A program made the position numbers and the translations under genes. A stretch of DNA of 20,833 bases, from the NCBI GenBank assembly GCA_012060505.1, contig GCA_012060505.1_3027.1. One strand, 5' to 3'. The notes beneath the pieces were generated by a model, which was not told the origin of the DNA, did no database searches, and worked only from the letters and a program-made list of their open reading frames with translations. Positions 1 through 4,518 of this stretch are shown one piece after another (the stretch's first letter is position 1; every line of letters begins with the position of its first letter). Origin of the DNA: a phage.

Positions 1-935
1 GATGTCATTTGTTCTAGTTTAGAAAAACGTACATCATATTTTAAACGAAACGCCGGAAGACCGTATATTTCTACCAACGGAACATAATCCCAGACCTGAA
101 ACTTCATGCATTGAGCTTCTTTTTCTGAAATAGTTCCCTTTAAAGATTTATTAGCGATTCCATTAGAAGTAGTACGTGATTCAGCTACTTCGGCGAATTC
201 TTTAGCTTTACTAATTTCAGGATAAGCATCAAAAAGAAAATCTAGGCCTTCTGGCTCCTTTTCAACTTGCTCATGGTATACCAATTCGCCATCAATTAAC
301 ACACCTTCTGGATGAATCTGGCGAGCTTCTGCAGTCATTTTGATTAACTCTTCCTTGAGAAGATCTAATCCTAGATATTCATTACCAGCTCGTGATAAAA
401 GACGAACATCATCTAATTCATCACCTCTGACTTCAGCAAAGCACCGAGCTCCATCAGCTTTTAATTGGGCAAAGGCTGGAAATTTGATATTCTTATTAAT
501 GCCTTTTTCATCATAAGAACTTGCCAGCATTTGAGGTTGTTCAGGAATTAAACCTGGCCAAACTTTGTTTGCAATAGATACTGATGCACCGCATTCAAGG
601 TCTCGCGTCATCACCCGACGCAAAACTTCAACATCATCTTTTTTACCGTCAGTAATATATCCAGTTAATTCCTCAATTGCCGCATTTCCAGTCAATTTCC
701 GAGTAGCTAATGTGAATTCAATGAAGTCAAGCATATCGGTAAGAGTCAACATTCCAAAACTCTGGGTAGCAATACCAGGTTTAGGCCATTTCTTGATATA
801 ATACTGTAACCCACGAGAATAAGTCAGACGATATACTCGTTTGAGCAATTCATTATCTTTATTCTTTTCAAGAATTGCTTGCTTTTGCTTAGTTGAACCA
901 ATAGATGCTATTTCATTCAGAATTTTAAGAATCAT
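1..935 (-). CDS. 30: DNA ligase, N-terminal part; gene continues beyond window position 1
   Basis: Reverse-complement from 935 reads MILKILNEIAS..., matching my recollection of the T4 DNA ligase N-terminus; ATG overlaps the stop of the upstream ORF (ATGA). Not in ORF track because it is truncated by the window edge. Confidence 0.85.
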   Translation of the reverse strand, partial: MILKILNEIASIGSTKQKQAILEKNKDNELLKRVYRLTYSRGLQYYIKKWPKPGIATQSFGMLTLTDMLDFIEFTLATRKLTGNAAIEELTGYITDGKKDDVEVLRRVMTRDLECGASVSIANKVWPGLIPEQPQMLASSYDEKGINKNIKFPAFAQLKADGARCFAEVRGDELDDVRLLSRAGNEYLGLDLLKEELIKMTAEARQIHPEGVLIDGELVYHEQVEKEPEGLDFLFDAYPEISKAKEFAEVAESRTTSNGIANKSLKGTISEKEAQCMKFQVWDYVPLVEIYGLPAFRLKYDVRFSKLEQMT

Positions 936-1201
936 TGTTCATCCTTTAGAGTTTGGTTTACAGCTCTATTATAAATCAATTCATCATTAAGCTCAGTCAA
1001 AGACTTATGATATGTGGTTCTAACTTTATTTCCTTGCATCCAGTGCTTGACGTAAATGAAACCTTGCTCTACACATTTTTTAAAAATTCGTTCGTCTTTT
1101 TGAGCTCGGAATTCTGGATTGCATCTAAAAAATTGATTTACGTGACCGTAATCACGTGTAGTATTACCTTCATTTTCATAAATAGTATGAACAACAAACA
1201 T
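932..1201 (-). CDS. Hypothetical protein, 89 aa (position of T4 30.1)
   Basis: ORF track; ATG start; TAATG overlap with upstream ORF and ATGA overlap with ligase start. Confidence 0.6.
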   Translation of the reverse strand: MFVVHTIYENEGNTTRDYGHVNQFFRCNPEFRAQKDERIFKKCVEQGFIYVKHWMQGNKVRTTYHKSLTELNDELIYNRAVNQTLKDEQ

Positions 1202-2043
1202 TAGAATGCTCCTTGTAAAATATTATCACCACTAGTAGGTCTATTATACAAATACTCTATGCCACCAGGTTTAATATAGTTCCATGTATGAAATGGATGC
1301 ACATGATATGGATGTGTATAATATGGATGGTATGGATTTAATCCAGGAGTTCTCCAGGTAGTATTCCAACGAAAAGAATCGTTTTTAATCATCTTTTTAA
1401 TTACATCTTTTATAGCTTTTTCACTATCAAAACTTTCTTTATTTTCCTTCGATGGAAAAAGCTTATTCTCTACATCATTCCATGTATAAACTCGCTGTGC
1501 AGTTTTTGGAATACTGTCACGTTCCCCTCGAGCCATCCAATAAACAGGCACATTTAATATTTCACTCGCATGATCGCAGTGGTGAGCGAGATCGTCAATA
1601 TAACAAATTACGTTATATTTCTCTTTTGCCTTTTTGAACAACTCTTCTTTTGAAGAATCATGACCACACATCAATACTTCTGAGAAGGCACCAGGAAAAA
1701 GAGCATTCAAATTAAATTGACGATTCAACAGAGCGTCAATAGAATCACCCAATGCTGTAACAGCTACAAAATTATAATCTTCTTTTAATTTGTTAATTAC
1801 ACACAGTGCATCTTTATATGGAGACAAATAACGAATAAAATCTGAACGATTGTATTTTTCAATTAACTTGACGCCAAGTTCTTCGTCACAATTAAAGAGT
1901 TTACCTGGAGAAATAAATTTCTCATCTTGGATCATTTTTAAAATATGTTCTAACGGAAGATTATATTTCTGAGCAAAATAAGGAAGGCCTGATTGCCAGC
2001 TCAAACATACTCCATCAATATCAGTTAAAATAGTTGGCTTCAT
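1201..2043 (-). CDS. HAD-superfamily-like hydrolase, 280 aa (position of T4 30.2), with His/Pro/Tyr-rich C-terminal tail
   Basis: N-terminal LTDIDGV resembles HAD motif I (DxDG[TV]); C-terminus NPYHPYYTHPYHVHPFHTW; ATG start, coupled overlaps both ends. Confidence 0.7.
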   Translation of the reverse strand: MKPTILTDIDGVCLSWQSGLPYFAQKYNLPLEHILKMIQDEKFISPGKLFNCDEELGVKLIEKYNRSDFIRYLSPYKDALCVINKLKEDYNFVAVTALGDSIDALLNRQFNLNALFPGAFSEVLMCGHDSSKEELFKKAKEKYNVICYIDDLAHHCDHASEILNVPVYWMARGERDSIPKTAQRVYTWNDVENKLFPSKENKESFDSEKAIKDVIKKMIKNDSFRWNTTWRTPGLNPYHPYYTHPYHVHPFHTWNYIKPGGIEYLYNRPTSGDNILQGAF

Positions 2044-2498
2044 AGAGAGTCTCTTAATAGGTTTAACACATCAATAAATTCAGCTTCGGTTAGTATTGTA
2101 TCATCTTTTGTTAGACCACTAGCCATGCTGTGCTTCAAAACTTTTCCTTTCGAGGCTTGTAATGCATCGCGAAAGCCTCTGTTTTGAAGCGCTGCTTCAA
2201 AATACGCATTTGTGTATAATTCTTTCCAGGCTGGGGAGTATCTTGAAAACGGAACTCCAAGCCAGAAGAGGGTCCCACGGTCCTGAGCTCTAGCATAAGA
2301 CCTTCCAGCTTGTTGGGCGGCAAGCCCGGATAACCCAAATATACGACGTTGTTGTTCAACATTTTTCACCTTGCACCCTTGGAGGAATCCTTCAAGACCT
2401 CCAAATTGAATGCCATCCATAACGAAAGGCCATTGGGCGAAATTACTTAATGCACATGATGGCCATTTAAAATTGCTTCTAATCTCTAACTCAGACAT
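2040..2498 (-). CDS. NADAR/YbiA-like (DUF1768) protein (position of T4 30.3)
   Basis: Motif SNFAQWPFVMDGIQFGGLEGFLQGCK resembles the FSNF..WP...DG...E..Q..K core of YbiA/NADAR proteins as I recall it. ORF-track start at 2504 appears to be TTG; moved to in-frame ATG at 2498. Confidence 0.6.
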   Translation of the reverse strand: MSELEIRSNFKWPSCALSNFAQWPFVMDGIQFGGLEGFLQGCKVKNVEQQRRIFGLSGLAAQQAGRSYARAQDRGTLFWLGVPFSRYSPAWKELYTNAYFEAALQNRGFRDALQASKGKVLKHSMASGLTKDDTILTEAEFIDVLNLLRDSL

Positions 2499-2697
2499 TT
2501 TCAATGCTTATAATTTCAACATCAGCCCAATGACCATAGCAAGGAAGACGAAATTCAACTGGCCAGTTAGGGTCCTTTTCTAATATAATAGACTCAACTC
2601 GCGGTTCTTCATGTTCATCAGTATATGGATTTTTATCTGTTACTTTATATGTGACCTTAATGTACTGAATTCCAAAAATCTTATTAATTATATTCAT
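2491..2697 (-). CDS. Hypothetical protein, 68 aa (position of T4 30.4)
   Basis: ORF track; ATG start; ATGA overlap with upstream ORF. Confidence 0.5.
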   Translation of the reverse strand: MNIINKIFGIQYIKVTYKVTDKNPYTDEHEEPRVESIILEKDPNWPVEFRLPCYGHWADVEIISIENV

Positions 2698-4057: not shown

Positions 4058-4085
4058 TTTGGAAAATAAAAAAGGACTCCCGAAG
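4058..4085 (-). terminator. Intrinsic terminator downstream of the 30.9-like ORF
   Basis: Minus strand reads GGACTCC-ttcg-GGAGTCC (UUCG loop) followed by TTTTTTTATTTT. Confidence 0.8.
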
Positions 4086-4096
4086 GAGTCCTCAAC

Positions 4097-4273
4097 TTAT
4101 GCTTTCTGCTTACCAAAACGAGAAGCATCATCTCGAAGAACCGCACGTGCTCGGCGCATGATCTTCTCAACAGTTTGATTGATACGAGAGTTCGACCCAC
4201 GCTTGTAACCAGCGCGTTTAGAATCACCAACTTTCTTTTCAACTGCTTTCTTTGCTTTAGCTTGTTTTGCCAT
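4097..4273 (-). CDS. Small highly basic protein (position of T4 30.9); alternative longer start at 4315
   Basis: ORF track 4097..4315; product from second in-frame ATG reads MAKQAKAKKAVEKK...; intrinsic terminator follows the stop. Confidence 0.55.
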   Translation of the reverse strand: MAKQAKAKKAVEKKVGDSKRAGYKRGSNSRINQTVEKIMRRARAVLRDDASRFGKQKA

Positions 4274-4518
4274 TATAAATTCTCTTTTAAATGAAAATGC
4301 AGGACTTATTGGCATTGCCTGCGCAAGCCCTCAAGGGGAACATAGGTTTTTGGGTATTTAACGACCAGGATAACCATAAACCCGTCATCATTCACATTCA
4401 AGAGGTACACCATAAAACTGCCGGGGTCTTAAAACTATAATGATTCGCAAATCATTAATCAGACAGTTCGATGGCTCCTCGATTTTAGCTCACACTAAGG
4501 CAGTGAATCTCCAATAAA

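Follow-up and report, generated by a model that had tools for sequence, protein, structure and literature searches.

Gene 30.2 of T4-like phages encodes a predicted capped HAD phosphatase with a fast-evolving disordered tail

Phosphatases of the HAD superfamily carry four hallmarks: DxDx(T/V) on strand 1, a Ser or Thr on strand 2, a Lys or Arg before a helix, and an acidic pair on strand 4. Within the superfamily, possession of a C1 cap is associated with small-molecule substrates; phosphatases of the PNKP type have no cap. The nucleotidases cdN and mdN (NT5C, PF06941; PDB 2jao, 2i7d and 1mh9) combine a HAD core with a four-helix C1 cap, whereas T4 PseT and the PNKP 3′-phosphatase domain (HAD subfamily III) belong to the capless type, which acts on polynucleotide ends. 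A phage enzyme with likeness to mdN has been described in PBS1, in which the HAD enzyme Dtm is a dTMP phosphatase serving dU-DNA synthesis (PMC12697855).

In T-even phages, AdfN, the product of gene 30.3, is an anti-DarT NADAR enzyme (PMC11825919). The activity of AdfN(T4) is reported to be confined to T-even infection, and a further phage protein has been suggested to be required (PMC11825919). Gene 30.2, the neighbour of adfN, is annotated as ‘hypothetical’ almost everywhere, and our search of the literature on its function found no characterisation and no paper on gp30.2 activity. Here we analyse the gp30.2 encoded in a 20,833-nucleotide stretch of phage DNA (contig GCA_012060505.1_3027.1), hereafter referred to as the window.

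Gene identity and genomic context

The ORF list places a 280-codon ORF on the minus strand of the window, with its ATG at 2041–2043 and its TAA at 1201–1203; the first-pass annotation had reported this ORF and left the strand unstated. Tequatrovirus genomes share 96–98% nucleotide identity with it, and in RB32 and T4 the corresponding gene is labelled 30.2, hypothetical protein. The ORF matches PHROG 420 (E 3.7e-92) and is about 93% identical overall at the amino acid level to T4 gp30.2 (NP_049815, 278 aa), with 98% identity in the core and 86% in the tail, in which the present copy has one additional HPY-type pentapeptide. Both genes lie between 30.3 and 30.1, upstream of the ligase gene. Given this high identity and the shared order 30.3–30.2–30.1–30, the ORF is, as judged from sequence and synteny, the orthologue of T4 gene 30.2 from a T4-like (Tequatrovirus) phage.

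1201..2043, minus strand: CDS, T4 gene 30.2 orthologue, 280 aa plus TAA stop (ORF list, nucleotide identity, PHROG 420)
2040..2504, minus strand: 30.3 (AdfN), NADAR DNA ADP-ribosylglycohydrolase, upstream (Pfam Phage_30_3, 1.4e-69)
932..1201, minus strand: 30.1 (DUF3045), downstream (Pfam DUF3045, 1.1e-63)
1..935, minus strand: gene 30, ATP-dependent DNA ligase, 5′ part, cut by the window edge (junction encodes MILKILN; T4/RB32 synteny)

The adfN TGA stop overlaps the 30.2 ATG (ATGA), the 30.2 stop overlaps the 30.1 ATG (TAATG), and the 30.1 stop overlaps the start of gene 30 (ATGA). Together with adfN, 30.1 and the DNA ligase gene, 30.2 appears to form one co-transcribed, translationally coupled unit.

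The 30.2 family is present in 1,453 phage records, falls into 1,506 clusters at 50% identity, and has members in phages of Escherichia, Acinetobacter, Aeromonas, Vibrio and other hosts. A scan of 185,579 species genomes returned one match, which is probably a phage contig; because this single locus from the bacterial scan looks like phage, it offers no cellular operon context. Three family members are fusions (P0232, P0102 and P0141), and their extra regions contain no Pfam domains. A 30.2–30.1 fusion (P0014) was set aside, as it looks like a read-through, occurs in a few short contigs and carries a G11D change.

Conserved HAD core and catalytic motifs

AlphaFold models gp30.2 confidently as a HAD core bearing a helical C1 cap, and the four HAD motifs lie at the canonical strand ends.

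1459..2043, minus strand: HAD catalytic domain, residues 1–195 (Rossmannoid core plus cap)
2008..2022, minus strand: HAD motif I, D8-I-D10-G-V, residues 8–12 (conservation; predicted strand 4–7 just before)
1756..1758, minus strand: HAD motif II, Thr96 (end of predicted strand 91–96)
1648..1650, minus strand: HAD motif III, Lys132 (invariant; directly precedes predicted helix 133–142)
1591..1596, minus strand: HAD motif IV, Asp150-Asp151, putative Mg2+ ligands (invariant; end of predicted strand 145–150)

Conservation was scored in two sets of homologues, one of 32 sequences reaching down to 34% identity and another of 21. In both sets, D8, D10, K132, D150 and D151 are invariant; G11 hardly varies among the 32. 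T96 is present in at least 90%, with Ser in the two exceptions read (P0084 and P0097); in profile alignments, Thr96 pairs with the Thr/Ser of the NT5C ‘FICT(T/S)’ segment. Across Straboviridae homologues, all four motifs show no or next to no variation. Among the orthologues, the core has dN/dS values of 0.00–0.05.

These results confirm the HAD reading that the first-pass annotation had given to DIDGV, which corresponds to motif I. That annotation would have abandoned the reading had motifs II–IV been absent; all three are present and conserved. It had also called for structure prediction, which yielded a confident model with a fold matching HAD phosphatases. Thus, gp30.2 has motifs I, II, III and IV in a Rossmannoid HAD fold, as in the phosphatase branch of the superfamily, and the sequence and the model together support its classification as a HAD-superfamily hydrolase of the phosphatase type, from which we infer phosphatase activity.

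A helical cap resembling that of small nucleotidases

The insertion between strands 1 and 2 forms a predicted helical cap, with helices at residues 16–26, 32–40, 46–49, 54–65, 68–72 and 77–86 in the AlphaFold model. The cap residues W16, S18, Y64, S67, Y76 and D78 are invariant, and F43 is nearly so.

1786..2004, minus strand: helical C1 cap between strand 1 and strand 2, about residues 14–86 (model, conservation, NT5C alignment)

The top Foldseek match of the model is cdN, and most of the named next neighbours among viral predicted structures are called 5′ nucleotidase or deoxyribonucleotidase. A PDB profile search likewise returned cdN as its best match (E 0.047), aligned from DGVlvkWqSgL through the motif II strand. 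An hhalign comparison of the family with NT5C gave 91.6% probability (E 8.4e-7) over 93 columns spanning motif I, the cap and motif II, that is, over the N-terminal half only and against a shallow alignment of five NT5C sequences. In both the PDB-profile and the hhalign alignments (the latter with the shallow NT5C set), W16, F43 and Y64 pair with cdN Phe18, Phe44 and Tyr65, which we take to be the nucleoside-stacking residues. gp30.2 and cdN/mdN share DxDGV, an aromatic residue at +8, an S-G-L segment and a DD-type motif IV, whereas overall identity is only 14–17%, the C-terminal half has no hhalign alignment, and the NT5C enzymes have no disordered C-terminal tail such as that of gp30.2. Compared by description, PBS1 Dtm has the same fold and comes from a phage that manipulates its nucleotide pool, whereas 30.2 homologues, unlike Dtm with its dU-DNA role, are found in T4-like phages of many host genera (PMC12697855).

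The HAD signal surfaced only through profiles, scans of individual members and structure. The query alone returned nothing relevant from Pfam, nothing from NCBIfam and nothing significant from PDB sequences. In per-member Pfam scans, NT5C was detected in 5 of 32 homologues (best E 1.2e-4, sub-threshold) and Hydrolase in 7 of 32; the best family member reached E 3.5e-4 against HAD family models, again sub-threshold, and P0200 scored 19.6 bits against the NT5C Pfam model, with a cut-off of 24.8. The curated HAD thresholds (Pfam PF00702/PF13419 and the NCBIfam HAD models) and the NT5C gathering score (PF06941) were not reached; the 30.2 family is too divergent for existing models. The profile search against HAD families proposed in the first-pass annotation thus gave a signal through family profiles, but no curated model reached threshold on the query.

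Among HAD phosphatases, gp30.2 most resembles the small nucleotidases, as far as the alignments and the model indicate. Of the earlier suggestion ‘phosphatase or nucleotidase’, the first part agrees with the HAD phosphatase type, and the second, which draws on the Foldseek match to cdN, the sub-threshold NT5C scores and the hhalign probability, is plausible but unproven. A nucleoside monophosphate is our best guess for the substrate. A 5′-nucleotidase would bring no obvious benefit to a phage that recycles dNMPs, which counts against a nucleotidase reading.

A disordered and lineage-specific C-terminal tail

Beyond the catalytic domain, gp30.2 continues into a linker helix and a disordered tail. 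The helix has per-10-residue block means of 63 (residues 201–210) and 82 (residues 211–220) in the AlphaFold model; the tail stays below a pLDDT of 50 in each of two AF2 runs, one of which used an alignment of tail-motif-bearing sequences only.

1384..1449, minus strand: linker helix, residues 199–220 (predicted; poorly conserved outside T-evens)
1204..1359, minus strand: disordered C-terminal tail, residues 229–280 (pLDDT, dN/dS, absence in homologues)
1276..1338, minus strand: His/Pro/Tyr-rich stretch NPYHPYYTHPYHVHPFHTWNY, residues 236–256, inside the last 45 residues
1234..1266, minus strand: C-terminal short motif G260-G-I-E263-Y264-L-Y-N-R-P269-T270 (conserved in motif-bearing clusters)

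The low-complexity stretch noticed near the C terminus in the first-pass annotation is real: 14 of the 21 residues of NPYHPYYTHPYHVHPFHTWNY are H, P or Y, compared with a frequency of 0.105 in residues 1–228, a composition far from chance (binomial tail probability 1.2e-9; about 3e-7 after correction for 260 window positions). At the DNA level, Tandem Repeats Finder detected a repeat at 1288–1329 with a period of 15 and 2.8 copies, encoding HPYYT/HPYHV/HPFHT. The tail is translated in frame in orthologues, with a dN/dS of 0.25–0.52 as against 0.00–0.05 for the core, and is therefore coding sequence under weak constraint. It is a fast-evolving disordered extension, real yet lineage-specific.

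The first-pass annotation had proposed that the tail might bind metal and had asked whether it is conserved in orthologues. The tail is indeed translated in T-evens, but its histidines are not conserved: the T-even relatives show indels and His-to-Asn/Gln changes in the HPY stretch, and the equivalent stretch NPYNPYHPYQTHPFQ of T4 gp30.2 contains two His, compared with three in RB32 and five here. The tail is at most 30 residues long after residue 195 in 41 of 101 homologue clusters and thus absent in about 40% of them. Longer homologue tails are Pro/Trp-rich and predicted to be disordered, and contain 1.6% His, compared with 2.5% in the cores. Because the tail is His-variable, often absent and His-poor in other genera, metal binding is unlikely. 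A functional metal-binding module that regulates the phosphatase or supplies it with metal could draw on the five His within 21 residues of this phage and their far-from-chance composition; given that T4, RB32 and others have Asn or Gln in place of His, that tails elsewhere are His-poor or missing, and that the motifs through which HAD enzymes bind Mg2+ (I and IV) are complete in gp30.2, we consider such a module highly improbable. The HPY repeats are instead a recent 15-nt tandem-repeat expansion of variable copy number, with no conserved metal-binding role. As a caution, a conspicuous low-complexity stretch rich in His may have arisen by recent tandem-repeat expansion and have no conserved function.

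The only recurrent tail elements are W230 and the motif G-[IL]-E-Y-[LWY]-x2-3-[QRN]-P-T, found in 18 of the 101 clusters. These 18 clusters span several genera; E263 and P269 never vary in them, and Y264 and T270 are kept in at least 90%. Outside 30.2 C termini, the motif occurred neither in the window nor in 1.06 Mb of loci searched in six frames (about 60 kb of them from T4). Docking of the tail onto its own enzyme was rejected, as AF2 with motif-bearing sequences only gave a tail pLDDT of 29–38. The motif is altered in two close relatives with identical cores (L007 and L008), which counts against a docking role. On its recurrence in sequence, the C-terminal peptide is a possible but unproven docking element: the earlier idea of an interaction tail may hold, because this short motif recurs across genera.

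Proposed mechanism and alternative readings

The reading that we favour, with somewhat better than even confidence, is that gp30.2 is an intact, capped, Mg2+-dependent HAD phosphomonoesterase with a disordered tail, likely acting on a (deoxy)nucleoside monophosphate or a nucleotide-like phosphoester. By analogy with all HAD phosphatases, Asp8 would attack the substrate phosphate to form an aspartyl-phosphate intermediate, and Asp10, as the Asp+2 general acid/base, would protonate the leaving group and then activate water. Thr96 and Lys132 would hold the phosphate, and Asp150 and Asp151 would bind Mg2+. The C1 cap would close over the active site, so that a small-molecule substrate is expected; the alignment of its invariant aromatics with the stacking residues of cdN/mdN makes a (deoxy)nucleoside monophosphate or nucleotide-like phosphoester the likeliest candidate. 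The tail peptide G-[IL]-E-Y-[LWY]-x2-3-[QRN]-P-T may dock the enzyme onto another protein.

The neighbourhood suggests other roles. gp30.2 could be a HAD phosphatase that serves the surrounding NAD/ADP-ribose conflict module and not dNMP metabolism, acting on a pyridine-nucleotide phosphoester or one derived from ADP-ribose (such as ribose-5-phosphate, ADP-ribose-1''-phosphate, NMN or AMP) that arises from NAD+ consumption by Alt or from ADP-ribose freed by AdfN from DNA modified by DarT. It is even conceivable that gp30.2 is the additional T-even factor on which AdfN appears to rely, given the dependence of AdfN(T4) on T-even infection (PMC11825919). The start of 30.2 overlaps the adfN stop, alt lies just beyond the ligase gene in the T4 and RB32 maps, 30.3 is directly upstream of 30.2 in 22 of 79 related loci and somewhere in 37 of them, and one KVP40 paralogue of 30.2 adjoins nadV. 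More than half of the loci, however, have no detectable 30.3 within 6 kb, including those of Klebsiella/Enterobacter-type phages that keep the tail motif; the homologue in Vibrio phage K566 again lies by the ligase gene and not by NAD genes; ADP-ribose itself offers a HAD enzyme no phosphomonoester; and synteny inside one virus family is weak evidence of common function. We judge this role possible but rather unlikely. A working partnership of gp30.2 with AdfN and/or the DNA ligase, as opposed to a housekeeping nucleotidase activity, perhaps as the T-even factor of AdfN in DarT1 reversal, is a distinctly long shot; if it held, the tail with its G-I-E-Y-L-x-x-Q-P-T peptide would be a tether between gp30.2 and either a host protein or the replication/repair machinery. 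Among the loci compared, tail presence did not track the presence of 30.1 or 30.3.

The adjacent ligase gene raises the idea of an end-healing 3′-phosphatase that prepares nicks for ligation, like the HAD phosphatase domain of PNKP. Of 79 related loci, 71 have the ligase gene immediately downstream and co-oriented (median gap 281 bp), and its proximity to 30.2 is kept in L080–L082, where the order is inverted. PHROG polynucleotide kinase profiles match weakly (query E 0.0044; P0155 5e-4), and P0155, a distant homologue, is a fusion with a Pol-beta-like nucleotidyltransferase (phrog_24943), which is also encoded close to the HAD gene in L080 and L074. Like PseT/PNKP, gp30.2 carries the HAD motifs, is the product of an early phage gene and is linked to ligation. 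Unlike the capless PNKP/PseT type, however, gp30.2 is confidently modelled with strands 1 and 2 separated by some 70 helical residues, the predicted C1 cap; the kinase matches are far weaker than the cdN/NT5C signals, and T4 already has PseT with 3′-phosphatase activity, so that we find an end-healing role improbable. That gp30.2 has lost catalysis and serves as a HAD-fold scaffold or binding protein, as the sub-threshold scores against curated HAD models and the lack of a reported activity might suggest, is scarcely credible: the catalytic residues are invariant or, for T96, nearly so in 32 sequences down to 34% identity, which together with the low core dN/dS is the pattern of an active enzyme.

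Significance

T4 is the best-studied phage, and 30.2, a gene widespread in phages and virtually absent from cellular genomes, can now be assigned, at the level of prediction, as an intact capped HAD phosphatase of the nucleotidase type. The assignment supplies what is probably a missing enzyme of T4 nucleotide metabolism. The tight coupling of 30.2 to adfN and the ligase gene also makes gp30.2 a candidate for the unexplained phage-dependence of AdfN.

Gene 30.2 and its neighbours

The window is a T4-like (Tequatrovirus) segment bounded by the 5′ part of the DNA ligase gene at one end and nrdA at the other, and several Escherichia phages are 96–97% identical to it. The HAD-like hydrolase gene proposed in the first-pass annotation corresponds exactly to one 280-codon open reading frame (ORF) on the minus strand, with the DIDGV sequence at residues 8 to 12 of the encoded protein. 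The gene, located between 30.3 and 30.1 and upstream of gene 30 (DNA ligase), is annotated in RB32 and T4 as 30.2, 'hypothetical protein'; its DNA is 96–98% identical to that of hundreds of Tequatrovirus genomes, and its product falls in PHROG 420 ('unknown function'; E = 3.7e-92). T4 gp30.2 consists of 278 residues, with a core (residues 1 to 195 here) 98% identical to that of the window protein. A few database records already name homologues HAD hydrolase or 5′ nucleotidase, and a literature search found no experimental work on gp30.2.

Genes of the 30.3–30.2–30.1–30 cluster
2040–2504, minus strand, 30.3 = AdfN (NADAR anti-DarT1 DNA ADP-ribosylglycohydrolase; Pfam Phage_30_3, 1.4e-69)
1201–2043, minus strand, 30.2
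932–1201, minus strand, 30.1 (DUF3045, function not assigned)
1–935, minus strand, DNA ligase gene, 5′ part

Overlapping stop and start codons join all four genes (ATGA between 30.3 and 30.2, TAATG between 30.2 and 30.1, and ATGA between 30.1 and the ligase gene), and no terminator-like site was found between them. AdfN strips phage DNA of the ADP-ribose added by DarT1; the study describing it reports activity only during infection by T-even phages and a possible need for another phage protein (PMC11825919). A 75-residue ORF lies inside 30.3 in another frame (2135–2362, minus strand), matching in position T4 30.3′ ('internal translation in a different reading frame'). Elsewhere, a strong terminator-like hairpin (4072–4093, minus strand; nine pairs, then a T-run) is found within the 3′ part of a 72-residue minus-strand ORF (4097–4315), which is 30.9 by position.

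A capped HAD fold

Single-sequence Pfam, NCBIfam and PDB phmmer searches with the 30.2 protein gave no significant match. Across 32 aligned homologues, the most distant at 34% identity, D8, D10, K132, D150 and D151 are invariant, as are W16, S18, Y64, S67, Y76, D78, R108, N111 and R172, and T96 is conserved in at least 90%, with Ser in the exceptions inspected; a second alignment, of 21 tail-less homologues, showed the same conservation. In the HAD superfamily, phosphotransferases are told apart from dehalogenases by Asp+2, the later of the two motif I aspartates. AlphaFold2 modelled residues 1 to 190 with a pLDDT of 92–98 (means of ten-residue blocks). In this model, the motif I DxD follows strand 4–7, T96 ends strand 91–96, K132 directly precedes helix 133–142 and the motif IV DD is at the end of strand 145–150, so that every HAD motif is predicted to be positioned as the fold requires. 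Strands 1 and 2 are separated by an insertion of six helices (residues 16 to 86), which forms a C1 cap. A Foldseek search of the PDB returned 91 matches at E ≤ 1e-3, and the best 50 of the 91 are nearly all HAD-fold enzymes, led by mouse cytosolic 5′(3′)-deoxyribonucleotidase (cdN; 2jao, E = 8.2e-8), with human cdN, its mitochondrial counterpart mdN and the Staphylococcus deoxyribonucleotidase-like 3bwv also ranking high. Conservation, model and structural matches thus agree on a HAD hydrolase, and the assignment stands because motifs II–IV are all present (T96, K132, D150–D151) and conserved.

Resemblance to deoxyribonucleotidases

The first-pass suggestion of a HAD phosphatase is supported, and that of a nucleotidase is plausible. 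When the 32 homologues were scanned singly, 5 matched Pfam NT5C, the cdN/mdN family (best 1.2e-4), and 7 matched Pfam Hydrolase, all below threshold. In a search of PDB sequences with a profile of the family, cdN ranked first (E = 0.047), with DGVlvkWqSgL aligned to DGVLADFESGL and the alignment continuing to the motif II strand. An hhalign comparison of the family alignment with a shallow set of collected NT5C sequences gave a probability of 91.6% (E = 8.4e-7) over 93 columns, which extend from motif I through the entire cap to motif II. W16, F43 and Y64, invariant or nearly so, align with Phe18, Phe44 and Tyr65 of cdN (Phe49, Phe75 and Trp96 in mdN), which we take to be the side chains between which the nucleoside is stacked in the crystal structures. 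Among viral predicted structures, the named nearest neighbours outside the family are mostly called 5′ nucleotidase or deoxyribonucleotidase. Phages offer a precedent in PBS1 Dtm, an mdN-like dTMP phosphatase (PMC12697855).

A disordered and variable tail

The low-complexity stretch NPYHPYYTHPYHVHPFHTWNY (residues 236 to 256) was correctly described as rich in His, Pro and Tyr (14 of 21 residues versus 10.5% elsewhere in the protein; P about 1e-9), and coincides with a 15-nt tandem repeat (2.8 copies, 1288–1329) encoding HPYYT/HPYHV/HPFHT. The metal-binding role suggested for it is not supported as a conserved feature. Among T-evens, insertions and deletions cluster in the repeat region (NPYNPYHPYQTHPFQ in T4, NPYNHLYHPYQTHPFQ in RB32 and NPYNPYHPYYTHSHQMHPFH in another lineage), where His residues are not retained. 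Across 101 sequences (the query and 100 cluster representatives), the part beyond position 195 is at most 30 residues long in 41 and longer than 60 in 50; Pro (11–14% versus 4% in the core) and Trp (3.5–4.6% versus 1.3%) are over-represented in the long tails, whereas His is not (1.6% versus 2.5%). Metal binding by the tail is accordingly very improbable. The dN/dS ratio is 0.00–0.05 in the core and 0.25–0.52 in the tail.

Residues 229 to 280 have a pLDDT below 50 in both AlphaFold runs; in the second, only motif-bearing sequences were supplied, giving co-variation a chance, and the tail still scored 29–38. The tail thus shows no sign of folding back onto the enzyme, and this arrangement was rejected. 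The recurrent tail elements are Trp230 and, near the C-terminus, the peptide G-[IL]-E-Y-[LWY]-x2-3-[QRN]-P-T. The peptide occurs in 18 of the 101 clusters, whose phages are of the T4, Klebsiella, Enterobacter and Citrobacter types, and E263 and P269 are invariant among the 18. A second class, of 12 clusters, ends in L-[RK]-A-Y-Y. The G-I-E-Y-L motif was not found outside 30.2 in a six-frame translation of 1.06 Mb. We infer, as the simplest interpretation, that the tail is a disordered linker bearing a putative docking peptide. In two close relatives (L007 6001–6846 and L008 3464–4315), the 195-residue core is 100% identical and the tail ends in KPGDAGYFNRLTSG, not KPGGIEYLYNRPTSG, so that even among T-evens the sole conserved motif of the tail is not always intact.

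Distribution, synteny and fusions

The family comprises 1,506 clusters at 50% identity (E ≤ 1e-3), with members in 1,453 phage records, and is almost exclusively viral. Among 185,579 bacterial and archaeal species genomes scanned, one locus was found (L086, Flagellimonas marina NZ_JBHSCL010000010.1); its contig has 30.3–30.2–ligase in T4 order and a T4-like size of 178 kb, and hence is probably phage DNA included in the assembly. In 71 of 79 related viral loci, the ligase gene follows downstream in the same orientation (median gap 281 bp), and it stays close in three with inverted order. Gene 30.3 occurs in 37 of the 79, directly upstream of the 30.2 homologue in 22, and 30.1 in 23. In Vibrio phage K566 (L087 4001–4582), the homologue is about 0.5 kb upstream of an ATP-dependent ligase and Alt; KVP40 (L003 4001–4573) has two homologues, one divergently adjoining nadV (nicotinamide phosphoribosyltransferase).

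The distant homologue P0155 combines the HAD domain with a Pol-beta-like nucleotidyltransferase (phrog_24943, which bears the label 'DNA polymerase') in one fusion protein, and two metagenomic phages encode this nucleotidyltransferase close to their HAD gene (L080 7336–8394 and L074 1041–2051). This nucleotidyltransferase matched nothing in Pfam or PDB sequence searches and is confined to 28 phage records, none of them T-even. P0014 (302 residues) is an apparent read-through fusion of a 30.2 core and 30.1 with a G11D change in motif I, and occurs on short contigs only. Another distant homologue, P0141 (365 residues), has a C-terminal extension with no Pfam match, whose NGRHRT segment recalls ParB/sulfiredoxin-type domains.

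Discussion

Gene 30.2 is already known; its product adds an unremarkable member to an established enzyme superfamily and has a lineage-specific, mildly curious tail. It is very probably an active HAD phosphatase; the chances that its substrate is a nucleotide are roughly even. As a whole, we favour as the probable explanation a capped, Mg2+-dependent aspartyl-phosphatase that would act on a small nucleotide-like phosphomonoester, and whose disordered tail would be largely dispensable.

A phosphatase serving an ADP-ribose–NAD module with AdfN and Alt is unlikely: the overlap of adfN with 30.2 and the position of nadV beside one KVP40 homologue favour it, but more than half of the loci lack 30.3. 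A 3′-phosphatase acting on DNA ends and coupled to ligase is distinctly unlikely: the ligase linkage and the nucleotidyltransferase fusion support it, but it conflicts with the C1 cap and with the existence of PseT. That gp30.2 is a dead scaffold is extremely improbable. We consider it highly unlikely that gp30.2 acts as the additional factor needed by AdfN or in repair linked to the ligase, but either role would be cheap to test.
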